Counted from the stretch's first letter, positions 224-15,382 are shown. The stretch: 15,382 nt of DNA from Pseudomonadota bacterium (GCA_031416315.1 JANOTL010000182.1:1-15382), one strand, 5' to 3'. Notes: a model not told the origin generated them from the sequence alone. A program made the numbers and translations.

Positions 224-889
224 ATGCGCCGTCTGATCTTGACCGTGATCGTCACCGGATTCGCCCTCACGCTCGTCGTCGGAGCCTTTCTCTACGAGAA
301 GCGCCGTCCTGGCGAGCAGGTCCTCGGCATCGCCGAGCTGAGCGGCACCGCGGTCGAGACGCCCGAGTCTTTCCCCGCCGCCTATCCGCGCACCGAGCGT
401 CCCGCCCCGGCGATCGAGCTCGTCGGCCACGACGGCCGCCCCGCCAGCCTCGCCGCCCTACGCGGTCGTCCCGTGATCGTGTCGTTCGCCTTCGCGCACT
501 GCTCCGCCGTTTGCCCGACGCTCGTGAAGACTTTGAGCGCCGTGCACACCAAGCTCGCGGCGCAGACGGCGCCCTCGATTCGCCCTGCGACGCTCGTCGT
601 CACGCTCGATCCCGAGAATGACACGCCCGCAGAGACCGCGCACCTCGCCGCGACCTGGGGCATGCCGGCTGGCATGATCTACGCCTCCGGCCCAAAGGCC
701 GACGTCGAGGGCGTTCTCGACGCCTACAAAGTACCGCGCGGCACCGACGAGAAAACCGGCGAGATCGCGCATCCTGCGCTCGTCTACGTCTTGGACGCCG
801 AAGGCCGCATCACCTACACGCTGAACAATCCCACCGCCCTATGGTTGGAAGAGGCCGTGCGGCGCGCGGCCGGGCCGGTCACGCACTGA
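224..889 (+). CDS. SCO1/SenC-family copper chaperone (CuA assembly)
   Basis: AAGGAG RBS at 213-218, N-terminal TM anchor, FAFAHCSAVCP (CxxxC), VTLDPENDTP and the conserved third ligand His in IAHPALVY. Confidence 0.92.
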   Translation: MRRLILTVIVTGFALTLVVGAFLYEKRRPGEQVLGIAELSGTAVETPESFPAAYPRTERPAPAIELVGHDGRPASLAALRGRPVIVSFAFAHCSAVCPTLVKTLSAVHTKLAAQTAPSIRPATLVVTLDPENDTPAETAHLAATWGMPAGMIYASGPKADVEGVLDAYKVPRGTDEKTGEIAHPALVYVLDAEGRITYTLNNPTALWLEEAVRRAAGPVTH

Positions 890-984: not shown

Positions 985-3111
985 TTAACGGGGCTTCGCG
1001 GCCGAGCGCAGCAGGCTCGCGAGGTCGACCGGTTTCATCAGGAAGTCGTCGCAGCCGGCGGCGAAGCAGGCGGCCCTTTCGCCGCTCATGGTTCGGCCCG
1101 TCAAGGCCACGATGCGCGAGGTGCAGCCGCGCTCCCTGAGGCGCCGAGTGACTTCGTAGCCGTCGAGACCTGGCATCTGCACATCCATGAAGATCACGTC
1201 GTAGGCTCCGGCCAAGGCACGGGCGAGCCCTTCTTCGCCGTCCGCCGCGACGTCGACGGCGCAGCCGCCGAGCGCGAGAGCTCCCGCGACGAAGTCGCGC
1301 ATGTCGGCGGTATCGTCGACGACGAGCGCACGGCGGCCAGTGAGGTCGACGACCGGTGCCGACGACCCGAAGGCGGCGACAGCGAGCTCGCGGCCACTTT
1401 CCCTCGACGCTACGACCGTGCCGACACCGACTGTGACGACGAAAACGCTTCCCTTGCCGACCTCGCTGTGCGCCAGAATGATGTCGCCGCCCATGGCGCG
1501 CGCCAGGGCACGCGACAGCGACAGACCGAGACCGGTGCCGCCGAACCGGCGGCTCGTCGAGGCGTCGGCCTGCGTGAACGGCTGGAAGAGCCGCGACGCG
1601 TCCCCCTCCGCGACGCCGCTGCCCGTGTCCTCGACCTCGAGGACCAGCAGCGACTCGCTTGCGCCCGGCTGCATGCGGACCCTCACGTCGACGCGCCCAA
1701 CGCTGGTGAACTTGACGGCGTTGCCGACGACATTGATGACGATCTGCCGCAGCCGTACCGGATCGCAGCTCGCCTCCGCCGGTAGAAGCGCGTCGTACGT
1801 CTCGCTGAAGCCGAGCCCTTTTGAAAGCGCGGCGCGCCGCGCCTCGTCGAGCACCCCTTCAAGCTCCGCCACGAGCGAGATGGGCCGGCGCTCCACCCGC
1901 AGTTTCCCCGCCTCGACGAGCGAGAGGTCGAGGATGTCGCCGACGAGCGCATTGAGGTGGCGGGCGTTGCGAAAGATGGACTCCAGAGCGGCCGCGCGCT
2001 TGTCCGTGGGAAACGCCGGATTGACGAGCGCCTCGGCGAAACCGAGCACCGCGCTGAGCGGCGTCCTCAGCTCGTGGCTGACGTTCGCGAGGAAGAAGGT
2101 CTTCGCTTCGCTCGCCGCCCGTGCGGCGTCGCGGGCCTGCGCGAGGTCTTTCTGCAGTCGGCGGTCCTCGGTCACGTCGCGCGAGACGCCGACGATGCCG
2201 ATCACGTCGCCGGCCTCGTTACGCGCGGGCGAAAGTGAGATCGTGAAACAATAGGCGCGCCCTTCGGCTCCGGGCACGTGGTGCTCTACCGTGATCTCGG
2301 CGCCCTCCTCCAGCACCTTGCGGTGGCTTTCCTCGATCTGCTTTCCGAGATCGGGAGGGATGAGGTCGACGACGCGCTTGCCGATCATCGCGCTCGGCTC
2401 CATGCCGTAGCGCCGCACGCGCGGGTTCACCGAGACGTAGCGCTGCTCCTTGTCCATCAGGAAAACGACGTCCGTCACGCTCGCGAAGATCGAGCGGAGC
2501 CGGCCCTCCGACTCGCGCAGATCCGCCTCGAAGCGCACCGTCCCGAGGTACAGATAGACGAAGGCGGCGAGGATCGTCGCGGCTGTCGATCCGACGATGG
2601 CGCGCGCGATCCAACGCAGCGCCTCCGGGGCGACAGGCAGCGAGACGACCCCGAAGAAGTTGGTCGCATCGAGCAGAATGAGAAGAGCGAGCGGCAAACA
2701 CACCGAGGTGTAGAAGGCCGCTTTTTCTTGCTTTCCGAAGAGCACGAATGGCATGCAGAGCGTCGCGAGGAGGTAGAGGTGGATCCCCGCGTCCTCGCCG
2801 ACGAGGAGCGAGAACGCAAACGGCGCGGCGTTGCCGACGACGACCATCCCGGCGCGCGACGCGCGCACGTGCCCGAGCGCGTTGAGCAGCGGCAGCACCG
2901 CGTAGCCGAGCGCGACCGGCACGACGCACAGTCCGAGCGTTCTTTGCCCGGCGAGCGCGAAGATCAAGACGTAGGGCAAAGTGATGAGGACGATGGTCGC
3001 CGAGAGGCGGTTGGTAAGCGCGACGCGCTTCGCCAGCTCGGGTGGCAGGTCGCGACCCAACCCGGCCTCAAGGATCCGTTTAAGCAAGCGAGGCGCCATG
3101 TTGGCTACCAT
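985..3111 (-). CDS. Hybrid sensor histidine kinase: multi-TM (MASE7-like) sensor, PAS/PAC, HisKA, HATPase_c, receiver
   Basis: About 6 hydrophobic N-terminal helices, a PAS/PAC region ending VGVSRDVT, H-box FLANVSHELRTPL, N-box NVVGNAVKFT, G-boxes DTGSG and GGTGLGL, and a receiver domain with VVDD, FMDVQMP and KP. The start could also be ATG at 3099. The MASE7 call is by resemblance only. Confidence 0.93.
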   Translation of the reverse strand: MVANMAPRLLKRILEAGLGRDLPPELAKRVALTNRLSATIVLITLPYVLIFALAGQRTLGLCVVPVALGYAVLPLLNALGHVRASRAGMVVVGNAAPFAFSLLVGEDAGIHLYLLATLCMPFVLFGKQEKAAFYTSVCLPLALLILLDATNFFGVVSLPVAPEALRWIARAIVGSTAATILAAFVYLYLGTVRFEADLRESEGRLRSIFASVTDVVFLMDKEQRYVSVNPRVRRYGMEPSAMIGKRVVDLIPPDLGKQIEESHRKVLEEGAEITVEHHVPGAEGRAYCFTISLSPARNEAGDVIGIVGVSRDVTEDRRLQKDLAQARDAARAASEAKTFFLANVSHELRTPLSAVLGFAEALVNPAFPTDKRAAALESIFRNARHLNALVGDILDLSLVEAGKLRVERRPISLVAELEGVLDEARRAALSKGLGFSETYDALLPAEASCDPVRLRQIVINVVGNAVKFTSVGRVDVRVRMQPGASESLLVLEVEDTGSGVAEGDASRLFQPFTQADASTSRRFGGTGLGLSLSRALARAMGGDIILAHSEVGKGSVFVVTVGVGTVVASRESGRELAVAAFGSSAPVVDLTGRRALVVDDTADMRDFVAGALALGGCAVDVAADGEEGLARALAGAYDVIFMDVQMPGLDGYEVTRRLRERGCTSRIVALTGRTMSGERAACFAAGCDDFLMKPVDLASLLRSAAKPR

Positions 3112-3433
3112 ATTAGCGGACTGCCCAGACTTGCACGGCCTTTGTTCGCCGCTGCCGCAAAGTTCCGCGGCCCGGCCCGCCCGACTGTACCGGCACTCTG
3201 ACAGTTCCGCTTCTCCCCGGATGACTAATCAGTCGCCTTAAGGATGATCGATCCTCCCAAAGCCCCCCCCTTGTCGCACTAGGCTCTTGACTCCTGTTGC
3301 TTCTGCAGCCTCGACGCACGCTACTTTTGCCGGCGTTGCGCGGCTCGGAAACCCTTGTTTCACGTTTTGGGACTTGGTCTCGGCTTATCGTTCGCATTGC
3401 GGGCATGGTGCGGCCATGCCCATCGAGGTCTTT

Positions 3434-3806
3434 GCCGTTGGCGCTGAAGCACCGTCTTCCCTTCGCGAACGGCGTCTCGTCTTCGAAGCCAAAGCCCTTT
3501 CCGATATGCCGCACCTTGAGGCCGGCGCGCTCGCCAAACGCGATGCGCATGACGGCACTCGCCGCGACGGCGGCGGCGAGCTGCTCGAATGCGGCAAAGA
3601 CCGGGTCGAGTGAGCTGGGTTCGAGCGCGTCGCCCATCTCCTCGGTCAGATACCTGTGGGCGCGGAGGTCACTGATGACGGCTTGGGCCACCGCTTCCAC
3701 GATGCCCGCGACCTCCTCGTCGGTCGGACCAGGGAGGTGATGAAACACGGGCACGGGACCGGCCACCGAGAAGACGCCGTCGAGGGCGACGGTGTGGAAG
3801 TGGATG
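3434..3806 (-). mobile_element. IS91-family (HUH/Y2 rolling-circle) transposase internal fragment, copy 1
   Basis: Translates IHFHTVALDGVF...RIAFGERAGLKVR...CFSANG (HUH motif), breaking off where GFSLHA would be expected. Bases 3528-3806 match 8737-9015 with 10 mismatches in 279 bp. No N-terminus or catalytic Tyr region. Confidence 0.85.
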
Positions 3807-4552: not shown

Positions 4553-4771
4553 TCTTCTGCTTGCTCTGATGCGCCGGGAGCTCTCCCATGGCCGCCCGAC
4601 CGCATCATCTTGGGCACCGAGGTTCTCGCTGCGCTGTTCCTGCCGGTGGACATCAAGAAGTTCAAGGCCGAGCATGGCTTTCGCGATCTGAAAGACGACG
4701 AAGTTTTCTGCGTCGAGGACACCGGGGCGGTCGAGTCTCTCCAGCCGCGTCGGCTCAAAGCGATTGCATGA
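4553..4771 (+). pseudogene. Start-less coding fragment of unknown function
   Basis: Frame +2 reads ...WPPDRIILGTEVLAALFLPVDIKKFKAEHGFRDLKDDEVFCVEDTGAVESLQPRRLKAIA* with GC3-rich codons. There is no convincing start or RBS after the TAG at 4550-4552. Confidence 0.35.
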
Positions 4772-6380
4772 AGTGGATCAGGTCGCTTTTTTCGGCGGCC
4801 GAGAAGAGTTCCGCGCCGTTCGTGAGGAGGATGCCTTCGTCGTGGCCGACGTTGGAGAGGCCGGGGCGCGCCGAGTCGTAAAGGTACTCGTCGCCGAGAT
4901 TTCGTGGTGCGCGCGGATAGCCGTTGCAGGCGCCGTCGAAGTCCCTGGCGGGGTCGTCCGGAGGCACCGCGCGGTAAACCTTCGGACGCTCTTCACCGCG
5001 TGTCAGCACGTCGCAGAGCGTCGGGGCGGCGTTGTTGTGGAAATACGGCCAACGCGCCCAGATGCCGACCAGCGGCGGGGGCACGTAGCCACCGGTCGCC
5101 CGGACCTCGATGCCGTTCAGACGGGAGTAGCGGAGAGCATTCAGCTTAGGAGCAAGCCCCGCCATGCCGCGCCGGCGGGCAGAATCAGTGCCGACGTCGA
5201 CGACCCTGGTCGGCTGCGGATAGTCGACGCGGACGGTTAGGTAGCGTTCGGCGGGAGTCAGACGCTCTGAGCCCGGTGCTTCCCAGGCTTTGACGTACGT
5301 GCCGTGGCAACGGGAGCAATTGGCGTCGAAAAGAGCTTGCCCGCGGCGGGCGGCGGCGACGTCTGCGTCCTCGACCGGAAAAAAATCCGAGAAGAGAGGC
5401 GCTTCGCTCGCGAACACCGCCGCGGTCAGCTCGCGGACGATGTGCGGGTTGGCGTCGACGAAAGCCTGAAGCGCTGGCAGCGACGTGCCTCGGCCTATCT
5501 CGTTCCAGAGGAGGTTCGTCAGAATGGGATTTCCTGCGACGAGCGAGCCGTCGGCTGCCCAGCGGTTCTTGTAACGGACGTTCCACCAGACCGGAGGTTT
5601 GCTGGCGGCGGCTTCGTCTCGGAGCAGGTCGGTTTGCGGGAAGGCTTCATAAAAGTTGCTGCGCGTGGCGTCGGCGTCTGGCGCGCGGCGGGTGAGGGAC
5701 AGGGACACCTGGGCGACGGAGGCGTCGAGGCCGAGCGCCTGGGGTCTCATCGTTTCGACGGCGCGGAGGGCGCGGCCGAGACTACGAAACAGGGCTGTTT
5801 CCTGGGGCGAAGCGGCGAAAGTCGCCTGCCACACGGAGGCCGGCACGAGCGACGTCGCGGATTTCACTTTGAGGAAAAATTCGTTGGCGCGGGGGAAGCG
5901 GGTCGAGAGTCCAAGCACCGTCTTGCCGAAGAGAGAGCCGGCATGGCACGCCGGGCAACCGTACGTGAGCACGGTAAGGCCGTTGCGTTCCTGATACGTC
6001 GCGCCGAGGCGACGGTTGGCGACATCGCTCGGGAGCGGCACAGCGTAGACGCCTGCGTCTTCAGGCCGAGGGAACGGCGGCAGGCCCAGCCAGGCGTATG
6101 CGTCGTCGGGAGAGTCGTAACCGGAGGCCGCGCGAAACACCGCGCTGTCGAAGCCCCGGAAAAATACGTCCAGAGGATAGACAGTGTCGGAGGCTCCCGA
6201 CGGATAATTGACCGCGTGGGCGCGGCCGGCGGCGACGGTCGTCGCAAGATCCTGCTCGTTCAATTGATAGGGATTGGCCCGGCCTCCGGAAGGCAAAGGT
6301 TCGTCGACGCCCCAGGTCGGCTGCGCCGCTGCGAGCGACGCCTGGAACGTCGTCAGGAGGAGGGTTAGAAGGCGCGACAT
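4755..6380 (-). CDS. Secreted diheme c-type protein, RoxA/MauG/bacterial cytochrome c peroxidase superfamily (RoxA-like)
   Basis: Signal peptide, two widely spaced CxxCH motifs (CPACH, CSRCH), KPPVWWNV, GYVPPPLVGIWARWPYFHNN (PYxHN motif), C-terminal GLSNVGH and EKSDLIHFMQSL. Confidence 0.82.
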   Translation of the reverse strand: MSRLLTLLLTTFQASLAAAQPTWGVDEPLPSGGRANPYQLNEQDLATTVAAGRAHAVNYPSGASDTVYPLDVFFRGFDSAVFRAASGYDSPDDAYAWLGLPPFPRPEDAGVYAVPLPSDVANRRLGATYQERNGLTVLTYGCPACHAGSLFGKTVLGLSTRFPRANEFFLKVKSATSLVPASVWQATFAASPQETALFRSLGRALRAVETMRPQALGLDASVAQVSLSLTRRAPDADATRSNFYEAFPQTDLLRDEAAASKPPVWWNVRYKNRWAADGSLVAGNPILTNLLWNEIGRGTSLPALQAFVDANPHIVRELTAAVFASEAPLFSDFFPVEDADVAAARRGQALFDANCSRCHGTYVKAWEAPGSERLTPAERYLTVRVDYPQPTRVVDVGTDSARRRGMAGLAPKLNALRYSRLNGIEVRATGGYVPPPLVGIWARWPYFHNNAAPTLCDVLTRGEERPKVYRAVPPDDPARDFDGACNGYPRAPRNLGDEYLYDSARPGLSNVGHDEGILLTNGAELFSAAEKSDLIHFMQSL

Positions 6381-6427: not shown

Positions 6428-6565
6428 ATGAATCCCAAAAGAAACGGGGGCCTGGACACACTGCGCGCGGCGGCGATTCTTGTCGTGATCGCCCGCCACG
6501 CTTTGGAGTTCCTGAAATAACCGCTCCCGGAGGTGTTCAACCACGGCGGCGCTTTCGCGTGCACG
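6428..6565 (+). pseudogene. Acyltransferase-3 (OafA-like) 5' remnant with internal stop
   Basis: ATG 6428 gives MNPKRNGGLDTLRAAAILVVIARH (family LDxLRxxAxxxVxxxH motif). TAA at 6518-6520 is followed by PLPEVFNHGGAFACT, breaking off before the expected GVDLFF. Not in the ORF track. Confidence 0.72.
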
Positions 6566-6832
6566 CCTAGCGCACGACCGTCACGTGGGGTCACGGTCAC
6601 TCGCTTATAGTCGACTCGATTCGTGGCCCCGCGCTCTTCGCCCGCGATCAGGCTGCCACTTTGTCATTCTTTGGGCCCCCGGGGAGACGCTGCAGGCCAG
6701 CAAGGCGCGCAACCCGGACCGGCGATTGACGATCTTAGCCACAGAACCCGAGGTTTAGCCGGCTCCTGGGACGCCCGATCTTCTGATTTGATAGGGATGG
6801 TGGTCCCATCCTTCAACGGAGACCTCCCGCCC

Positions 6833-7270
6833 ATAACGAAATCAGCCTTCATCGCCCTTTCGACCGCCGTCGCGACCTTGTGCGCCACGGCGGTTATCGC
6901 CGAGACCACGCCGACGAAGCTGGCCGACGTCGAGATCAAGATCGACGATCTGAGCCTCGTGCAGAAGGGCGCCGGCATCAACACGCTCTACATCTCGCTG
7001 TATGACGCCGACAGCCCGATGCCGCGTCCGTACGCCGCGATCAAGATCGCCTTGGACAAGGGCGCGGCGAAGGGCACGATCTACCGTGGCAGCTTGAACA
7101 CGGCGAACGTGACGGTCATGGGCGGCGCGCAGCCGAAGGCCTTCCGCGTGAAGGCGAAGCTCGACAAGGGCGGGGCGGCCGGGCCGGATGCGGCGGGGGA
7201 TTTGGTCGGGATCATCGAGAAGGTCGTGGTTGGGGCGGCGACGGTGGTGACGATCGACAGGGCGATGTGA
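6833..7270 (+). CDS. Exported stand-alone CycH/CcmI C-terminal Ig-like domain protein; start codon uncertain
   Basis: Signal peptide (I/M)TKSAFIALSTAVATLCATAVIA, then TLYISL...PMPRPYAAIKI...VMGG...RVKAKLDKGGAAGPDAAGDLVG...VTIDR, which resembles the CcmI C-terminal domain. GGAG at 6818-6821 precedes ATA at 6833. An alternative in-frame ATG is at 6797. Confidence 0.62.
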   Translation: MTKSAFIALSTAVATLCATAVIAETTPTKLADVEIKIDDLSLVQKGAGINTLYISLYDADSPMPRPYAAIKIALDKGAAKGTIYRGSLNTANVTVMGGAQPKAFRVKAKLDKGGAAGPDAAGDLVGIIEKVVVGAATVVTIDRAM

Positions 7271-7379
7271 CCTTCTTGCCCCTGACGCTCCTCGGAGCGA
7301 GGCCGCGCGCCTAGGCGACAGGAACGGGGGCTTGACTCTCTCAGCTCTCGTTGTCGGTGCTCATTCCACCTTGCAAGCG

Positions 7380-7800
7380 GCAAGAGGTTACGACGATTGA
7401 CCCGGTCCCGGTCCGGCTCTTGAAGCCAAGGTGAACTTCGGAACGGCGCTTCCTCGAAGACCACGTCGATCCCGTACGCGCGGAAGACCTCGACGTAGTA
7501 GTAGTAGCCGACGATCTGTCGCTGCTAGCTGAAATCAGGCGCCAGCGACAGCGCCGCAGCGGCTCCAGCTCGACGCGCTGCGCATCGGAATCGCGGACGA
7601 CGTGATTGCGCGCATGCGTCGCCGGATCCGTGCTCATCAGGCGACGAAAGGTGACGTTGTCGATGCTCAAGCTGGCCGCGAACACTATGCCGCGCTTCGG
7701 GGTCAAGGTCGAATCCTTGCTGCTCGACGCGCTGCCCGGGATCCCGGTGGGTGCTCTCGCCCACTGAGTCCCGAGCACATTCGTGCGCCAGCTCAGCTCG
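7380..7800 (-). pseudogene. Possible decayed gene fragment, unknown function
   Basis: Protein-like text in two frames: ...KRGIVFAASLSIDNVTFRRLMSTDP...RVELEPL, then after a shift ALSLAPDFS*QRQIVGYYYYVEVFRAYGIDVVFEEAP with TAG at 7525-7527. Boundaries approximate. Confidence 0.3.
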
Positions 7801-7809
7801 GCAAGCCGA

Positions 7810-8728
7810 TCACTCGACCGGGACGGCGATTTTGTCCACCGTCGGCACCGGGAGCATTCCGCTCGCACCGATCGGGCCACCCGAACCTTGGACGACCGGC
7901 GGCGGTGGCGGGTTCGCGTGCCAGGCAGCGCAGCTCGCCGCGTCCGTCGGTAGGCCGGTCGTACGGCGCGGGTCGCCAACCGGCGCGCCGCAGGTGCCCG
8001 GACGGAATGTGTTGCCTTGGTCGAGGCACTCGTGCTCCTTGCCGATGCTCCACGCGCCGGTGAAGTCGCGGCGCGTGTTGCAGCAGCAGTGCAGGTCGCC
8101 GGAGTATCCGGTCTCGGCGGTGAATTGCGGCGCCGGGCCGGTGTTCTGGATGGCGTTGTAGCAGAAATCTTTCATGTTTCTGCAGACGTACCAGTCGGCG
8201 GCCATGCTGACGCCGCTGCAGGTGATGCCGCCGATCATGGTCACGGTCGAGGCCGGGCCGGCGATGCCGCATTGCGAAATGGTGTTCATCGCTTGGCAGC
8301 CGAGGCGCGCCGCGTCGTCCATGGCCTGCAAATCGCCGCTCAAGAAGTCGTTCGTTTTGCATCCCGCCATCGCTTCAAAAGAACGAACGAGCAAGTCGAT
8401 CACGGACATGCCGCAAGCTGCGGCGCGCAAGGAGCGCATCCAGGGCGAGCTGCGGATGCGGTTCGCGGCGACGTCGGCGCTGATGGTCCGACTTGCAACC
8501 GCGTCGGCGAGCCCGGGCGAGATCAAGTTCAAGATCCAGTTTCGAACAAGCTCGCGGCGGCGCTCGCGCCGGCGCGCGTCCATAGAGTCCGAGCGCATTC
8601 AGCACCGCGTGGACGATAAACGGCGCGGTGACAAGCTCGCAGTCTTCTGGCGCGAATGCTGCGCCGCATGCCGAGCAGCGCGTCATGGCGATGGCGAAGA
8701 CGCGCGCGAGAAGCTTGGCCTACGACAT
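7810..8728 (-). pseudogene. Cysteine-rich secreted protein gene with disrupted 5' end
   Basis: The main frame 7810-8598 has 13 Cys including CCC and a Pro-rich tail. A signal-peptide-like start MS*AKLLARVFAIAMTRCSACGAAFA begins at ATG 8728 in another frame with TAG as codon 3, implying a nonsense change plus a frameshift near 8560-8590. It starts 8 nt from the IS remnant. Confidence 0.55.
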
Positions 8729-8736
8729 CCGCTCGA

Positions 8737-9175
8737 CGCTCGCCGAAGGCGATGCGCATGACGGCGCTCGCCGAGACGGCGGCGGCGAGCTGCTCGGATG
8801 CCGCAAAGACCGGGTCGAGTGAGCTGAGTTCGAGCGCCTCGGCCATCTCCTCGGTCAGATACCTGTGGGCGCGGAGGTCACTGATGACGGCTTGGGCCAC
8901 CGCTTCCACGATGCCCGCGACCTCCTCGTCGGTCGGACCAGGGAGGTGATGAAACACGGGCACGGGACCGGCCGCCGAGAAGACGCCGTCGAGGGCGACG
9001 GTGTGGAAGTGGATGTTGAGATTCAAAGCGCTACCGAACCGCTGCACGAAGGTGACCCCGCCGCTCACGGGCTGCTTAACGCCGCGCTCCTTCGCCTTGT
9101 GGGTGTTGTAAAGCTGGATCATTGCCGTGACGCGGCGGTGGATGATGCTTGTCAGCTTCCGGCTTGCAGCCAGCC
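8737..9175 (-). mobile_element. IS91-family transposase internal fragment, copy 2
   Basis: Translates LAASRKL...GGVTFVQRFGSALNLNIHFHTVALDGVF...RIAFGER, the typical QRFGSALNLNxHFH signature of IS91/IS801-like Y2 transposases. Truncated at both ends. Confidence 0.88.
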
Positions 9176-9277: not shown

Positions 9278-9865
9278 CTAATGCGTCGCCCAACTATCCT
9301 GAACGTCCCGCGACAACATCCGCTCGACCGCCCCGATCGCCGCCTGACTCGAGACCGGCCCGTCGTGCCGGTAGAGAACGCGCCCAGTATTGTCGAGCAC
9401 GATCGTGACCGGCAGCGTCTTCACCGCAAAGGCCTCTGCGACCTGGCCATCCGTGTCGAACAGAATCGGAAAATGCTCGGCGCTGACCCGGCCGGTGCGT
9501 TGCACGGCGGCCCAGTCGTCGCCGGTCGCGATGGCGTACATCCCGTAACGCTTGTTCTTCCGCTTCTTCCAGATGGCGTCGAGATAGGGCTTCTCGTCCA
9601 TGCAGGCGACGCACCAGCTCGCCCAGAAATTGAGGACGACGGGACCGCCGCGCAGCTCCTCGGAGCTCACCACCTTCGCGCCCGGGCCCTGGGCTTCCGG
9701 CTCGACCAGCGGCAAGGCGAACGCCGGCGCCATGGGCAGCTCCGGCTGCGTCTTGCGCCGCTCCATCGCCCAAGAGTCCGCGAAAAAACTGATCAGAGCG
9801 TACGCGGCCGCAACCGGCACGACGTACCAGAGGTGCTTCACGACGCTGCGCAGGCGGCTCTTCAA
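9278..9865 (-). CDS. TlpA/ResA-family membrane-anchored thiol-disulfide oxidoreductase
   Basis: N-terminal TM, VVLNFWASWCVACMDE and cis-Pro motif LPVTIVLD. Likely start is TTG 9865 overlapping the upstream TGA; GTG 9841 is an alternative. Confidence 0.9.
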   Translation of the reverse strand: MKSRLRSVVKHLWYVVPVAAAYALISFFADSWAMERRKTQPELPMAPAFALPLVEPEAQGPGAKVVSSEELRGGPVVLNFWASWCVACMDEKPYLDAIWKKRKNKRYGMYAIATGDDWAAVQRTGRVSAEHFPILFDTDGQVAEAFAVKTLPVTIVLDNTGRVLYRHDGPVSSQAAIGAVERMLSRDVQDSWATH

Positions 9866-10053
9866 CTCTTGCTGCGCTTGTAGAGAAAGTAGATCAAGCC
9901 ACCGATGCCGCTGACCGGCACCGCGGACATCAAAGCCGTGCTGAGGAGGAAGGCCTGGCGGCTTTCCTCGCGACCGAAGCCGCACACGGTGCAAGCGAGC
10001 GCTGACGATGCCGGCAGGAGCGTTGCCGCAAAAGCCCAGAGAAATTTCGCCAT
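9862..10053 (-). CDS. 63-aa membrane peptide: signal peptide, CxxC, TM helix
   Basis: GAGGA RBS, then MAKFLWAFAATLLPASSALA-CTVCGFGREESRQAFLLSTALMSAVPVSGIGGLIYFLYKRSKS*. It fills the gap between subunit III-b and TlpA. Confidence 0.75.
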   Translation of the reverse strand: MAKFLWAFAATLLPASSALACTVCGFGREESRQAFLLSTALMSAVPVSGIGGLIYFLYKRSKS

Positions 10054-10064
10054 GACCGGAGTCC

Positions 10065-10673
10065 TCAGAAGTAGACGAGGCCGTAAAGCATGGGCCAGAC
10101 GCCGACGATGAAGTACCAGAAAATGCGCATCGCCGTGAAGCCCGCAGGCGTGAGCGTACCGCGCTTCATGCGATAGTACACGTAGCTCATCGCGATCACG
10201 GCTGACAGAGCATGCAGGCCGTGCGTGCCGATCAGCAGGAAAAACGTCGCCCCGAAGAGGCCGGACTGCAGAGTCATGCCGAACTTGATCAGCTTCACCC
10301 ACTCGTAACCCTGGAATGTAACGAAGAAAACCCCGAGAGTCAGGGAGCCGAGGTAGGTCCGCGTCACACGTTCTTTTAAGGCGGGGTTGGCGAACTGGCG
10401 TCCGGCGAGGAAGATCAGGAGGCCACTCATCATGAGAATGACCGTGTTCAGCGCGGTCGTGGCGACCGGCAGACGCACGTTCTCCGGCGGCACCCAAGTG
10501 TTGCCCGTCCCGGCTTTGATGATCACGTAGGCGCTGACCAGCGCGGAAAAGAAAATCGCCTCCGTGATCACGAAGATCAAGGTGGCGAGCACGGCGTTCT
10601 CGAGCAGGGGCTTACGGCGGGAGGATCCGCCGCTGCCGGAGGCCTCGATCAAGCCGAGCGCGGCGGCACTCAT
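10065..10673 (-). CDS. ctaE: Heme-copper oxidase subunit III paralogue b (short, 5-TM)
   Basis: FVITEAIFFSAL, ALNTVILMMSG, FQGYEW, LIGTHGLHAL and FWYFIVGVW. ATG 10673 overlaps the subunit IV stop (ATGA). Confidence 0.88.
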   Translation of the reverse strand: MSAAALGLIEASGSGGSSRRKPLLENAVLATLIFVITEAIFFSALVSAYVIIKAGTGNTWVPPENVRLPVATTALNTVILMMSGLLIFLAGRQFANPALKERVTRTYLGSLTLGVFFVTFQGYEWVKLIKFGMTLQSGLFGATFFLLIGTHGLHALSAVIAMSYVYYRMKRGTLTPAGFTAMRIFWYFIVGVWPMLYGLVYF

Positions 10674-11131
10674 GGATTGTTTCCTTGGTTCGGAAGCTTC
10701 CCGGCGTTCGATTCTTTCGCGCCCGGATCCGGCTTGTAATTTGGGTCGCTCAGTCCAGGGTTGTTCTTGTGGTCTTCGATCAACTTGATCGCCGAGTCCT
10801 TCACCCAGTTTTGTCCCGTCGGCTTCATGAGGTCGGTCATGACGCCGAGGAAGAACATCGCGACCGCGAGCAGCATCGCATAGAGCACGTAGTGGACGAA
10901 CCTTTTCTCGATCTTGAGATGCATGAAGTAGGCGCAAACGATCAACGCCTTGACGAAGGCGATGCCGAAGGCCGTGATGATCGTGAGGACGCGGATCTCG
11001 AGCATCGGGCCGGCGACCGAGATCGCGAAGAGCACGAGCAGCAAGAGATAGATTTTCACGTAGTGCATCGTGCCGTGGCCGTGATGCTCGTGATGCGGAT
11101 GCGCGTCGGCGGTATGAGACGTGTTAGCCAT
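10670..11131 (-). CDS. ctaF: Cytochrome c oxidase subunit IV family protein
   Basis: His-rich N-terminus, YVKIYLLLLVL, AFVKALIVCAYFMHLK signature and 3 TM helices. Confidence 0.88.
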   Translation of the reverse strand: MANTSHTADAHPHHEHHGHGTMHYVKIYLLLLVLFAISVAGPMLEIRVLTIITAFGIAFVKALIVCAYFMHLKIEKRFVHYVLYAMLLAVAMFFLGVMTDLMKPTGQNWVKDSAIKLIEDHKNNPGLSDPNYKPDPGAKESNAGKLPNQGNNP

Positions 11132-11143
11132 CGGATCAGGTCC

Positions 11144-11716
11144 TCACTTCGCGATGTAGAGGAGCGGGAACAGGAAGATCCACACGACGTCGACGAAGTG
11201 CCAGTAGATGCCGATCAGCTCGACGCGGTGCAGGTTCTTGTTGCGTATGCAGTCGAGGGAGATGATCGCCATGATGACCATGCCGGCGATCACGTGCAAC
11301 CCGTGCAGGCCGGCGGCGGTGTAGTAGAAGGACCAAAAGAGGCTCTGCGTGATGGTGAACCCGTTCAGGATCTCCGTCGTCCATTCGATCGACTTGATGA
11401 CGAGGAAGGTGGCGCCCCCGCCGATCGTCAGCCAAAGAAATCCGGCCGCCTTCGTGCCCTGGCCCTTTTCGGCCGCCTGGTGGGCGAGCACGGCGAAAAG
11501 CGACGACGTCAGAAGGACGAAGGTGTTGATCGCGCCGGCGACAGTGTTGGTGTGGGCCGCGCTCTCCGACCAGTGACCATAGAGTTGCCGCAGGATGATG
11601 TACGCGCCGAGCAGGCCGCCGAAGATCACGATCTCCGAGCCGAGGACCCACCAGATCGCCAGGCGGCCGGTCGGGACGCCGGAGGCACTTCTACGCGTTG
11701 CAAGGGGTTGAGCCAC
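11144..11716 (-). CDS. ctaE: Heme-copper oxidase subunit III paralogue a (short, 5-TM)
   Basis: GTG start with GAGG RBS, GRLAIWWVLGSEIVIFGGL, INTFVLLTSS, GLHGLHVIAG and GIYWHFVDVVWIFLFPLLY. Confidence 0.92.
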   Translation of the reverse strand: MAQPLATRRSASGVPTGRLAIWWVLGSEIVIFGGLLGAYIILRQLYGHWSESAAHTNTVAGAINTFVLLTSSLFAVLAHQAAEKGQGTKAAGFLWLTIGGGATFLVIKSIEWTTEILNGFTITQSLFWSFYYTAAGLHGLHVIAGMVIMAIISLDCIRNKNLHRVELIGIYWHFVDVVWIFLFPLLYIAK

Positions 11717-11751: not shown

Positions 11752-13476
11752 TCAGTTCGGTTCGTTCTGCGGCCAGAAGTCTTGCGCGCGTCCGGGGACG
11801 CTGAACTCGTACGGGCCGCGGTACACGGTCGGCATCGTCGCGAAGTTGCCGTGCGGCGGCGGCGACGGGCACTGCCACTCGAGCGTGTTGGCGTTCCACG
11901 GGTTCGGGCCGGCCTTCTTGCCCTTGAACATGCTCCAGACGAAGTTGATTAGGAACGGCACCTGGAACGCCAGCATGACGATCAAGGAGATCGTGGCGAA
12001 CACGCGCCAGCGGTACATGTCCGGCGTGTTGAGGTCGATGAAGTTCTGGTAGTTCGAGATGCGGCGGTGGTCGCCGGCGGCCCCGAGGAAAAAGAGCGGG
12101 ATGAAGATGCCGTTGAACGCCAGGGTCGTGCCCCAGAAGTGGATCTTGCCCCAGGTCTCATTCATGAAGCGGCCGAAGATCTTCGGGAACCAATAGTAGA
12201 TACCCGAGTACACCGCGATGATGGCGATCGGCACGAAGGTGTAATGGAAGTGGGCGATCACGAAGTACGTGTCGTGGAAGTACACGTCCGCGCCGGAGGC
12301 TCCGAGGAAGATGCCGGTGACGCCGCCGATCAGGAACTCGGCGACGAAGCAGAGCGCGAAGAGCATCGCCGTGCTGAGCGTGATCGAGCCGCCGTAGAGG
12401 GTCGCAATGTAGACGAAAAGCATCTCGGCGATCGGCACGGAGATGATCACGGTCGTGACCGCGAAGACGTTCGCCATGCGCGGGTCGATGCCCGAGATGA
12501 ACTGGTGGTGGGCCCACACGAAGAACGAGATGATGCCCGTCGCGATCGCCGTGTAGAGGACCGTCTTGTAGCCGAAGAGCTTCTTGCGGGAGAAGGTGCA
12601 CATGACCTCCGCCACGATGCCCATTGCCGGCAGGAGGACGACGTAGACCTCGGGGTGGCCGAAGAACCAGAACAAGTGCTGCCAGAGGACGGGGTCGCCG
12701 CCGCGGGCCGGGTCGAAGAAGCCGGTCCCCAATGTCTGGTCAAAGACGAGCATCGCGGCGCCGGCGATCAGCGGACCGACCGAGGCCATGAAGAGGATCG
12801 AGGCGATAACGATGAACCAGACGACGATCGGGATGTCGTGCCACTTCATGCCGGGCGCGCGTGCGTTCATCAGGGTGGTGATGAAGTTGATGCCGCCGAG
12901 GAGGAAGGCCACGAACTCGAGCGCGATCGCGATGACCCAGAGCGACGAGCCGAGCGGCGTCAGGTTGTACTCGGCCTTCGCCGAGAGCGGCGGATAGGCC
13001 GTCCAGGCGCCGCCGAAGCTGCCGCCCGGAACGAAGAAGGAGGCTAGGAGCACGATGATTGAAAGAAGGAAGATCTGGTACGACAAGCGATTGATGCGTG
13101 GAAACACCATGTCGTCGCAGCCGATCATCAGCGGGATCAAGATGTTCCCGAAGGCCGCGATGAGGACCGGCATGGCGAACCAGAAGATCATCACCGCGCC
13201 GTGGTTCGTCACCAGCATGTTGTAGTTCGCCGGGCTCACGAGGCCGAAGCCCGGGACGTCGATGCCCGGGAAGGCGAGGTTCATCCGGAAGACGTAGACG
13301 AAGAAGGCGCCGAGGATGCCCATGAGCATGCCGGTAAAGAGGTACTGCAGCCCGATGATCTTGTGGTCGAGCGGGAAGAAGTACTTCGAGATGAACCCAG
13401 GCTCGTGGTGCTCGCCGTGACCGTGGTCGTCATGGGGCTCGTGGGCGTGGGCGGTCTTGGTGGTGGTCTTGGCCAT
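11752..13476 (-). CDS. ctaD: Cytochrome c oxidase subunit I, A1-type motif (GHPEVY), atypical K-channel
   Basis: DHKIIG, NHGAVM, DMVFPRIN, WTAYPPLS, WFFGHPEVY, WAHHQF, HDTYFVIAHFHY and an RR pair. All six His ligands are present. Confidence 0.97.
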   Translation of the reverse strand: MAKTTTKTAHAHEPHDDHGHGEHHEPGFISKYFFPLDHKIIGLQYLFTGMLMGILGAFFVYVFRMNLAFPGIDVPGFGLVSPANYNMLVTNHGAVMIFWFAMPVLIAAFGNILIPLMIGCDDMVFPRINRLSYQIFLLSIIVLLASFFVPGGSFGGAWTAYPPLSAKAEYNLTPLGSSLWVIAIALEFVAFLLGGINFITTLMNARAPGMKWHDIPIVVWFIVIASILFMASVGPLIAGAAMLVFDQTLGTGFFDPARGGDPVLWQHLFWFFGHPEVYVVLLPAMGIVAEVMCTFSRKKLFGYKTVLYTAIATGIISFFVWAHHQFISGIDPRMANVFAVTTVIISVPIAEMLFVYIATLYGGSITLSTAMLFALCFVAEFLIGGVTGIFLGASGADVYFHDTYFVIAHFHYTFVPIAIIAVYSGIYYWFPKIFGRFMNETWGKIHFWGTTLAFNGIFIPLFFLGAAGDHRRISNYQNFIDLNTPDMYRWRVFATISLIVMLAFQVPFLINFVWSMFKGKKAGPNPWNANTLEWQCPSPPPHGNFATMPTVYRGPYEFSVPGRAQDFWPQNEPN

Positions 13477-13500: not shown

Positions 13501-14214
13501 TCAGTTGGCGGCCAGGGAGGCGCGTTGCTTCAGCCACGCGTCGTGCGCGGCGTCGTCTTCCACCGTGATGCGCGACCGCATCAGGCCGTGGCCGATGCCG
13601 CACATCTCGGCGCATTGAAAGTCCCAGGTTCCGGTCTTGATCGGCTTGAACCAGCCGGTGATCGTCCGGCCGGGGACGGCGTCCTGCTTCAGCCGGAAGA
13701 CCGGCACCGACAGGCTGTGCATCACGTCGATGGACTCGAGCTTGAAGTGATACGTCTTGTTCACGCGGACGTGCAGCTCGTCGATCGTCTCGACGTCGTC
13801 CGGGGTGCCGAGCTGGCGGTCGGCGCCCGGATGCACGAAGCGCCAGGACCACTGCTGGCCGATGACGCGGATCGTCTCGTCCGCCGGCGGCAGCTCCTGC
13901 TTGATGTGGTGCCACGTCTTGATCGCGAAGAAGATGATCACCACGTCGCAAAGTAGGACGAGGTTATGCGGGAGGTGGATCCACTTCATCTCCTCCTTCT
14001 TCTCGCCCGAGACGTACAGCGCCTTCACGCCGTCCCGCTTCCGGTACTTGAAGATGAAGTAGAAGAAGATGACTTCCGAGAGGATCAACCAGAAGCCGAC
14101 GAGCACGCCGACCAAGAGAATCAGGAAGTCGACATCGGAGGCGAAGCTCGACGCCTGCTCGATCAGCGCGGCGGCGGGGGACGTCGCCTGGGTGAACTTG
14201 TCTAGGAATTCCAT
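13501..14214 (-). CDS. ctaC: Cytochrome c oxidase subunit II (CuA, no fused cytochrome c)
   Basis: Two TM helices, GQQWSWRF, DVMHS, KQDAVPGR and CAEMCGIGHGLM (complete CuA ligand set). Confidence 0.95.
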   Translation of the reverse strand: MEFLDKFTQATSPAAALIEQASSFASDVDFLILLVGVLVGFWLILSEVIFFYFIFKYRKRDGVKALYVSGEKKEEMKWIHLPHNLVLLCDVVIIFFAIKTWHHIKQELPPADETIRVIGQQWSWRFVHPGADRQLGTPDDVETIDELHVRVNKTYHFKLESIDVMHSLSVPVFRLKQDAVPGRTITGWFKPIKTGTWDFQCAEMCGIGHGLMRSRITVEDDAAHDAWLKQRASLAAN

Positions 14215-14241: not shown

Positions 14242-14361
14242 TCAGAATGCATAGATGAGCACGGCGACCATGAAGACGATTACGCCGCCGAGCGTCATGT
14301 AGAACAAGCGCTTCAACAGATGCTCGCCGTTCATGAACTTGTGATCGTCACCACTGGCCAC
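14242..14361 (-). CDS. 39-aa single-TM micro-protein in the oxidase operon (absent from ORF track)
   Basis: GAGGAG RBS 7 nt before GTG 14361, encoding MASGDDHKFMNGEHLLKRLFYMTLGGVIVFMVAVLIYAF* with GC3-rich codons. It fills the c4-to-subunit II gap. Confidence 0.75.
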   Translation of the reverse strand: MASGDDHKFMNGEHLLKRLFYMTLGGVIVFMVAVLIYAF

Positions 14362-14389: not shown

Positions 14390-15064
14390 TCAGTTCTTCG
14401 ACGAATGCTGCTGCTGCGGAGGGGTCAAAGCGTTGATGTAAGCAATCACGTCGAGCATCCCCTGGTCGTCGAGGAGCATCGCGTTCGGCCGCATCGAGGC
14501 ACCGATCGGATCGCGCGCTACGTCTCCGCCACGCGCGCCGGACTTGAAGTTCTTCAGCTGCGTGAGGAGGTACCAGTCGCTCTGTCCCGCGAGCTTCGGC
14601 GCGTTCAGCTCTTTGTTGCCGTTGCCGTCGGGGCCGTGGCATGCCGAGCAGACGGCATACTTCTGCTCGCCCTTGACGAGGCTGCCTTTCAAGGTCGGCT
14701 GCGCGGGGACCGGCTTCATCGCCGCGACGTATTTCGCCACCGCCTTCAGCTCGTCGTCCCGCTTGAGGAAGCGGGCCATCGGCGCCATGCGGGTGCCGGC
14801 GATGTCGAGCGGATGCGTCCCGCGCGCTCCGGAGCGGTAGTTCACGAGCTGACGCTCGACGTACCATTCCGGCAGTCCGGCGATGCCGGGCGCGCCGATG
14901 GACTCTTGGCCGCCGCCGTCCTCCGCATGACATTGCTGGCAGAGGCGCGTGAAGATCACGGCATCCCGGACAGCCTCGGCATGCGCGGGGGTCGCGCGGG
15001 TCGCGAGGAGAAAGCCAGTGAGCAGAAGGAGGACGACAGGAATGGAACGCAACCGGAAATCCAT
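14390..15064 (-). CDS. Diheme cytochrome c4-type protein, probable electron donor to the oxidase
   Basis: Signal peptide from ATG 15064 (the ORF track extends to 15130), CQQCH and CSACH, duplicated PxL/IAG...WY...QLxN segments and a distal Met in each domain. Confidence 0.9.
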   Translation of the reverse strand: MDFRLRSIPVVLLLLTGFLLATRATPAHAEAVRDAVIFTRLCQQCHAEDGGGQESIGAPGIAGLPEWYVERQLVNYRSGARGTHPLDIAGTRMAPMARFLKRDDELKAVAKYVAAMKPVPAQPTLKGSLVKGEQKYAVCSACHGPDGNGNKELNAPKLAGQSDWYLLTQLKNFKSGARGGDVARDPIGASMRPNAMLLDDQGMLDVIAYINALTPPQQQHSSKN

Positions 15065-15242
15065 CGGCAACACCCACAACCAATAAGGCCAGATGGTATT
15101 TTTGGTATCACTCACTTTAGGTTTAAGCAACGGATAATCGAACGCAATCGGCCCTCGGACGCCACAGGCAGCGCTCTCTGCTGCCTCGGCGCGCCCCGTC
15201 CCTAGCGCTTACCCCGGGGGAACGGCACGACGAGCTATTCGA

Positions 15243-15382
15243 CTAGTTAGTCTCTGGCGCGAAACGCGCCAGAGACTATCGTGAGGTGCAAAGCGACGAA
15301 GGTTCTCGGCGATACCCAACTGTTTCGATCGTCGCGGTGATATCCTTGGCTGCGCTCTGGATAGTCTCTGGCGCGTTTCGCG
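15243..15382. repeat. Inverted pair of REP-like palindromes (REPIN-like), truncated by window end
   Basis: CTAGT + TAGTCTCTGGCGCG-AAA-CGCGCCAGAGACTA (15248-15278) + TC. Bases 15360-15382 (GATAGTCTCTGGCGCGTTTCGCG) are the exact reverse complement of 15258-15280. The spacer has imperfect inner arms. Confidence 0.8.

Follow-up and report, generated by a model that had tools for sequence, protein, structure and literature searches.

The window, by which we mean the whole 15,382-nucleotide stretch of DNA analysed here, contains a complete oxidase operon on the minus strand, running from a cytochrome c4 gene through a thioredoxin-like gene. Its central gene, coxA (11752..13476), codes for a 574-aa heme-copper oxidase subunit I (PF00115, E = 9e-128; alignment to 1M56) that bears the A1 motif GHPEVY and in which the K channel is erased; it scored 574.6 bits against TIGR02891, below the cut-off of 670.75. 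Upstream lie coxB (13501..14214, PF00116), which codes for a subunit II with intact CuA ligands, a 39-aa single-helix ORF read from the sequence (14242..14361) and a gene for a diheme cytochrome c4-like protein (14390..15130, two PF00034 stretches) whose true start is probably downstream of the listed TTG. Downstream of coxA follow a first coxC for a short-form subunit III (11144..11716, PF00510), coxD for a caa3-type subunit IV (10670..11131; PF03626, TIGR02229 above cut-off), a second subunit III copy, coxC2 (10065..10673, PF00510, start read from the sequence), a 63-aa membrane ORF with a CxxC motif (9862..10053) and a TlpA/ResA-like thioredoxin gene whose true start is uncertain (9278..9994; PF08534, NF002854 below cut-off), all on the minus strand. 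This gene order is conserved among the loci of the clade defined below. The c4-like gene lies directly upstream of coxB in all 18 of those loci L001-L019 that reach that far, and its product is the likely electron donor to the oxidase. The 63-aa ORF gave no Pfam match; 9 of 19 clade loci have a similar ORF in the corresponding position, and its product may be a copper-handling assembly factor. In locus L015, the ORF holding coxB (~6500-7975) is 683 aa long and may represent a c4-coxB fusion.

Elsewhere in the window we noted a SCO1/SenC copper chaperone gene (224-889, plus strand), a MASE7-PAS hybrid histidine kinase gene (985-3111, minus strand) and a gene for a 541-aa diheme protein (4755-6380, minus strand) with RoxA-like and di-heme peroxidase matches below NCBIfam cut-offs. 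Two 279-nt copies of a Y2_Tnp (IS91-type) transposase remnant, 96% identical, lie at 3528-3806 and 8737-9015, and a 28-nt inverted repeat, 93% complementary (15258-15285 and 15355-15382), occupies the end of the contig, upstream of the operon.

Subunit I was aligned with HMMER to 1M56 chain A, and residues are given in R. sphaeroides numbering (query offset +10). Homologues were grouped by identity and not by trait: the clade set comprises 155 rows of at least 60% identity (query included, near-duplicates kept, the broken L032 and L100 dropped) and the outgroup set 70 rows below 50% identity. From helix VI to helix IX the alignment is gap-free, and it bore out the substitutions that an earlier note had read from this DNA, at the positions given there. 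In the helix VIII stretch (12412..12432, minus strand), which includes IAEM at 12421-12432, T359 is replaced by I349 (12430-12432), I361 by E351 (12424-12426), K362 by M352 (12421-12423) and S365 by V355 (12412-12414); in helix VI, S299 is replaced by A289 (12610..12612), with Ala in 150 of 155 clade rows vs Ser in 70 of 70 outgroup rows. Positions 295, 299, 359, 362 and 365 are almost all hydrophobic in the clade, and the membrane portions of helices VI-IX show no gain of a conserved Lys or Arg. The retained residues that the note had listed were likewise all present (N121, D132, N139, E286, the cross-link Y288, the six His, W172/Y175, the Mg/Mn site residues D407/H411/D412 and R481/R482), as were Y33 and N207. 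E286 and Y288 (12643..12651) are found in 155/155 rows each, the six His ligands and the helix VI cross-link Tyr in 154-155 of 155 at each position, and D132, N139, N207 and E286 in every clade row. E286 lies in the XGHPEVY motif, as this is defined in PMC8361435.

Retention of the D channel thus held for the residues named but not for its upper part. In helix IV, S197E (12916..12918), S200A (12907-12909) and S201F (12904-12906) are fixed in 155/155 rows, with Glu at 197 in none of the 70 outgroup rows, and more fixed changes lie near the channel entrance (D121, R130 and Q134, query numbering). Two further gains were found: A356S in helix VIII (12439..12441), one turn above the lost T359 (Ser in 155/155 rows vs 1/70 in the outgroup), and L390E in helix IX (12337..12339), where the clade has E in 127 rows, T in 19, A in 7 and S and D in one each, and E is found in 0/70 outgroup rows. 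The earlier reading had missed S197E, S200A, S201F, A356S and L390E, together with His83 and Asp90 of subunit II described below. S356, also present in 79 of 80 rows of a search for a sister lineage (see below), is a candidate new hydrogen-bond partner near Y288. We considered and rejected its equation with S309 of ba3 oxidase, which maps to T359.

The state at position 362 is fixed across the clade (M in 150 rows, L in 4, A in 1 and K in none), while K362 is present in 69 of 70 outgroup rows. None of the 155 rows retains the lysine, and the substitutions are not private to the query. All 119 other top matches of a protein search (72-82% identity) have the same pattern, and a second search added 67 proteins, every one with E followed by M, L or A; the pattern is that of a clade (E361 in 154/155 rows, no K362). 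Close loci with the pattern lie in genomes whose titles read Myxococcota, Bdellovibrionaceae, Gemmatimonadota, Verrucomicrobiota and Eisenbacteria; among carriers with a name, the nearest bear the labels Oligoflexus sp., Bdellovibrionales and Polyangiales. A search of plasmids returned no clade member (best matches 44%), and the ESM Atlas returned generic COX1 clusters only. In genes from the host's own order, where most pairs were saturated and one row per group was dropped, five close pairs gave a dN/dS of 0.014-0.038 and a close canonical pair one of 0.021; when the query was paired with distant members, four pairs gave 0.13-0.20, compared to 0.14 for a distant canonical pair. Mean identity was 0.790 in the clade and 0.789 in the canonical set. 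The clade-wide fixed state, the purifying selection and the intact, conserved operon exclude decay and private mutation and support the earlier view of a selected rewiring. One clade member, L100 (G013:C6:35690-37349), is split in two frames, in a genome that has other heme-copper genes.

In a 166-row FastTree phylogeny, the clade, three basal rows and one degraded long branch form a group with a support of 100, itself nested in a 54-row group with lysine-bearing enzymes. In an IQ-TREE phylogeny of 38 rows from which the trait columns had been removed, the clade received a support of 99, L021 (Ca. Calescibacterium) joined the clade at 99, and another lineage that lacks the lysine (motif ISIPSV, with I for K), hereafter the sister lineage, joined at 91, unstarred. 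Nesting among lysine-bearing relatives suggests that the lysine was lost, the deep root being unsure. The note's statement that K362 is near-invariant in the A family did not survive: among the best 150 representatives of 50% clusters, 90 have K at 362, 56 another letter (some of these being fragments or degraded) and 4 a gap; a tree of 141 rows, drawn after 7 degraded rows and 14 near-duplicates had been removed, shows at least seven changes of state; and lysine-less cases are already in print.

Among the rows of that tree, 37 of the 63 without the lysine have an acid in helix VIII, vs 1 of the 78 others. Across lineages, however, association of lysine loss with S356 or with a helix VIII acid was not significant (4 independent pairs). 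Other lysine-less lineages have their helix VIII acid at 360 or 353 (P0192, P0195, P0203, P0233; P0153, P0193, P0194, P0205, P0260, P0270), a possible convergence with E361 to which the same non-significant result on independent pairs applies. The new helix VIII glutamate that the note had singled out, one turn from S365, is real, but E361 and K362 are both absent in L012, L020, L021 and P0123, and the sister lineage also lacks E361. We therefore rejected E361 as the sole replacement for K362; it is a later addition and not the core replacement. Three clade-carrying genomes also have oxidases of subunit I+III length (L124, L126, L127) in which K362 is replaced by Gln and E286 by Asp (HPDVY).

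Subunit II supplied a feature with a wider distribution. Its helix 2 (13945..13968, minus strand) contains His83 (13966-13968) and a buried Asp90 (13945-13947), each conserved in 35/35 core rows. A buried acid in this helix is present in 35/35 core and 36/36 sister-lineage rows and in none of 66 outgroup (K-type) rows, as well as in the four rows set aside, namely the basal L020 and L021 and the broken core L032 and L100. It is an Asp 11 residues before the helix-end Trp in core, basal and broken core rows, and a Glu or Asp 12 residues before it in 36/36 rows of the sister lineage, of whose 81 loci 36 reached subunit II; the register of helix 2 is ambiguous by up to four residues. This buried acid is the feature that best tracks lysine loss. 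Seven residues before it stand His in 35/35 core rows, Glu101 in 36/36 sister rows and Asp in L021, while L020 has no His or acid there. This shared spacing suggests that His83 sits at the old channel entrance, where E101(II) is kept in 12 of 35 core rows vs 66 of 67 outgroup rows. L012, the one core row without E361, alone among the 35 has Glu at position 80 of subunit II, possibly a swap of Glu80(II) for E361 seen in this single case. The CuA ligands H166, C201, C205, H209 and M212 are conserved in 35/35 core rows; the CuA glutamate is replaced by Gln in six of 35 clade members (L085, L087, L089, L092, L094 and L099).

Among 41 related genomes, 18 carry the clade enzyme, 18 a different A-type match, five neither and none both. 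The different A-type genes have the lysine in all 17 that were readable, of 18, and the same-genus genome G001 (82% complete) carries the lysine type. Ten of the 18 carriers, eight of them at least 90% complete, have no PF00115 gene besides the clade gene and yielded no bd oxidase; two of these sole-oxidase carriers, G015 and G030, are single-contig, and incompleteness of metagenome-assembled genomes could hide further oxidases in carriers. In a wider sample of the phylum, 23 of 86 genomes carry the clade enzyme, 20 of them with no other A-type match; the other three have extra A-type genes, one with the lysine. CtaA and CtaB (heme A / heme O synthases) were above cut-off in 18/18 carriers. 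NirK was found in one of 18 carriers, the source genome, vs three of 18 non-carriers with another A-type gene, and NirS was absent in the six genomes tested, with a weak control. Five genomes tested had no bc1 cytochrome b and had an NrfD-family gene of alternative-complex-III size (457-474 aa). The source genome has two PF00115 genes in all, the second being a cbb3 CcoNO fusion that profile search recovered and tblastn had missed; no separate NO reductase was found among the two. At L082 (758-1285, minus strand, and 1468-3615, plus strand) the CcoNO fusion is head to head with a NapC/NirT-family cytochrome. A link to a paper on the M. xanthus NmpR regulon was rejected, as that paper concerns cbb3. 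Because the clade enzyme is often the sole oxidase found, heme A synthesis is kept in 18/18 carriers and NirK is rare, its predicted activity is very likely the reduction of O2. Replacement of heme a3 by heme b3, raised by the polar residues near the farnesyl pocket, was rejected, CtaA and CtaB being kept in all 18 carriers.

How, then, could such an enzyme be supplied with the proton that K362 delivers elsewhere? Our leading reading, to which we give slightly less than even credence, is that the K channel is sealed by hydrophobic residues and that the proton comes through a relay of acids and His at the contact between subunits I and II. Electrons would pass from quinol through alternative complex III, the diheme c4, CuA and heme a to heme a3-CuB. 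His83(II) and E361(I) would form a new entrance in place of E101, with E390(I) in the same cluster, and Asp90(II), seven residues deeper, would take over from K362 as the group that holds the proton. From there, S356 and the farnesyl hydroxyl of heme a3 would hand it on to Y288 in the O to E step. The other protons would enter through the D channel as remodelled by S197E, S200A and S201F, so that pumping efficiency may change. The predicted closeness of Asp90, His83, E361 and E390 follows from helix position and from the presumed packing of subunit II helix 2 on helix VIII, and the course of the heme a3 farnesyl tail is likewise presumed. In a helical-wheel projection, E361 is offset from position 362 by 100 degrees in one direction and S356 by 120 degrees in the other; lying on different sides, the two offer no evident continuous path to Y288.

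Several other readings compete with this relay. The acid cluster could be structural or charge-compensating only, in an O2 reductase that takes all its protons through the remodelled D channel; this combination, the main rival, is unlikely but deserves real weight. E197 beside E286 would then serve as an extra store of protons in the O to E step, and the cluster would only stabilise the interface or compensate charge. A review (PMC12901375) describes the D path as able to carry seven of eight protons. The acid at 197 is found not only throughout the clade but also in the basal L020, L021 and P0123, which lack E361, and the constancy of the lower D-channel residues and the extra fixed changes near the entrance fit as well. 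The sister lineage, however, is lysine-less without E197 and yet has the subunit II acid; its upper D channel is unchanged (E197 in 0/80 rows; S200 and S201 in 73 of 74 filled rows each), which indicates that D-channel change is unnecessary for lysine loss. An invariant buried Asp would also be costly if merely structural. The laboratory S197D mutant of Namslauer, from 2007, was reportedly active but uncoupled, a phenotype that points to an effect on pumping and not to a new proton source. The same resemblance of S197E to an uncoupling mutant favours an O2 reductase with low or no pumping that draws some chemical protons from outside, or whose acid cluster binds Na+ and not H+, since four acids or His at what seems a similar depth could bind a cation. 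We hold this improbable: in many genomes the clade enzyme takes the place of an ordinary A-type enzyme as the sole oxidase found, and the set of D132, N139, E286 and R481/R482 is kept.

Equally improbable is a route inside subunit I that follows helix VII through small polar residues (E300, T319, T323, S327), a "KC channel" like that of the C family. These positions are well conserved in the clade (E/D300 and T/S319 in 155 rows, T323 in 154 vs 0/70 in the outgroup, S327 in 153), and the basal and sister branches were classed as KC channel in Degli Esposti 2021 (PMC8239418); but T323 is absent in L012, L020, L021 and the sister lineage, S327 and the acid at 300 also occur in lysine-bearing enzymes, the pore positions are almost all hydrophobic, and the KC proposal is based on sequence alone. 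The earlier note had also offered peroxide or NO chemistry. An NO reductase or peroxidase would need no K-channel proton, and the source genome has NirK and no separate NO reductase that we found. The K362M mutant reportedly keeps peroxide-driven activity, which would speak for the peroxidase. Against such chemistry, the cross-link tyrosine and the three CuB His are kept, and NirK occurs no more often among carriers than among non-carriers, with 10 of 18 carriers having a sole oxidase; we judge it very improbable. NO reductases of the heme-copper superfamily lack the cross-link tyrosine, according to Murali et al. 2024 (PMC11214002). Decay or sequence error is scarcely credible, with a state fixed in 155 rows from several phyla and low dN/dS; nothing here speaks for it, one broken copy in the relative G013 apart.

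Returning to the acid/His relay, its fullest form is that a lineage spanning several phyla has moved the K channel out of subunit I, with an Asp of subunit II in place of the lysine, a His(II)-Glu(I) entrance, two D-channel glutamates, and service as sole oxidase; taken whole, we offer this tentatively and would sooner doubt than assert it. If true, the lysine would be dispensable once subunit II supplies a carboxylate, despite K362M killing the laboratory enzyme. Why two proton channels are needed in A-type oxidases, the mitochondrial one included, has long been asked, as has whether the role of K362 is to carry a proton or chiefly to balance charge; nearly all work on the matter has used dead mutants. 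The clade is a living version of the loss of K362, T359, S299 and S365, often in the sole oxidase found in a genome, and its fixed gains provide a short list of candidate compensating residues. K362 is also a poor test of whether environmental oxidase genes are functional. The thorough erasure, the His/Asp pair of subunit II, the glutamates E361 and E197 and the argument from sole oxidases are new here; that lysine-less A-family oxidases have already been tabulated makes the finding less surprising.

Those tabulated oxidases are the nearest published relatives. Degli Esposti et al. 2021 (PMC8239418), in the parts examined, list many lysine-less A-family oxidases from sequence only, with an A1 "KC channel" subclade from Elusimicrobia, Ca. 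Calescamantes and Methylacidiphilaceae. Our enzyme (row Y A M I V E G V T S) shares with it the A1 motif, the loss of K354 and the polar KC positions. The Calescamantes row agrees with the basal L021 at 8 of 10 subunit I positions and the Elusimicrobia GWA2_38_7 row with sister-lineage locus L135 at 9 of 10, a link made by residue rows only, the accessions of that study lying outside our trees. None of the rows in those parts has the core pattern Y, A, M, I, V, the "Oligoflexia" rows (Bacteriovorax, Halobacteriovorax) differ from the core clade, and E361, E197, His83(II) and the buried subunit II acid go unmentioned there. By residue patterns, the clade thus appears to belong with or next to a published lysine-less group known from sequence. 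The literature searched contained no study or tabulated row for the core clade, which subscription papers or preprint supplements may list, and the parts examined of Murali et al. 2024 (PMC11214002), supplement searched, contain no lysine-less A group. The oxidases of acidophilic iron oxidisers and Thioclava (bioRxiv 2020.03.01.968255, in part) resemble the clade in having a hydrophobic residue for K354, in having lost E78(II) and in keeping the D channel; unlike the clade, the iron-oxidiser group is classed as A2, is deep-branching and keeps T351. Another lysine-less oxidase is reported from Ferrigenium (10.64898/2026.01.22.701106). The examined parts of these two preprints contain no biochemistry on lysine-less oxidases.

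Compared to the canonical A1 aa3 oxidases (R. sphaeroides 1M56, P. denitrificans 1AR1), the clade enzyme keeps the six His, E286, Y288, the lower D channel, the Mg/Mn site, the arginine pair, the CuA subunit II and subunit III. The presence of the latter two in the operon and of heme O/A synthases in 18/18 genomes is as in canonical A1, the bound heme being only predicted. In model enzymes the K path starts at a glutamate of subunit II and leads by way of a serine, the lysine and a threonine to the tyrosine (PMC8361435), and a mutant of its lysine is blocked at the O to E step, or heme a3 reduction, according to PMC12901375. The clade lacks K362, T359, S299 and S365, does not conserve E101(II) and has lost S200/S201; it has instead E361, E390, S356, E197, His83(II) and Asp90(II). 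Since the K-channel set (K362, T359, S299, S365, E101(II)) fails, we file the enzyme as A-family-derived and not as canonical A1. NO reductases are without the cross-link tyrosine, whereas Y288 is present in 155/155 clade rows. The ba3 oxidase of T. thermophilus (B family) is likewise lysine-free and reduces O2, but its best match is E ~1e-7 vs 1e-121 for the A type, and, in Table 2 of PMC12901375, it has Ser/Thr at the T359/K362 positions (S309, T312) and no active D path, where the clade has Ile349/Met352 and keeps the D channel. Finally, the laboratory K362M mutant (bovine K319M) bears the very substitution found here, which in the clade is fixed under purifying selection and accompanied by compensating gains.
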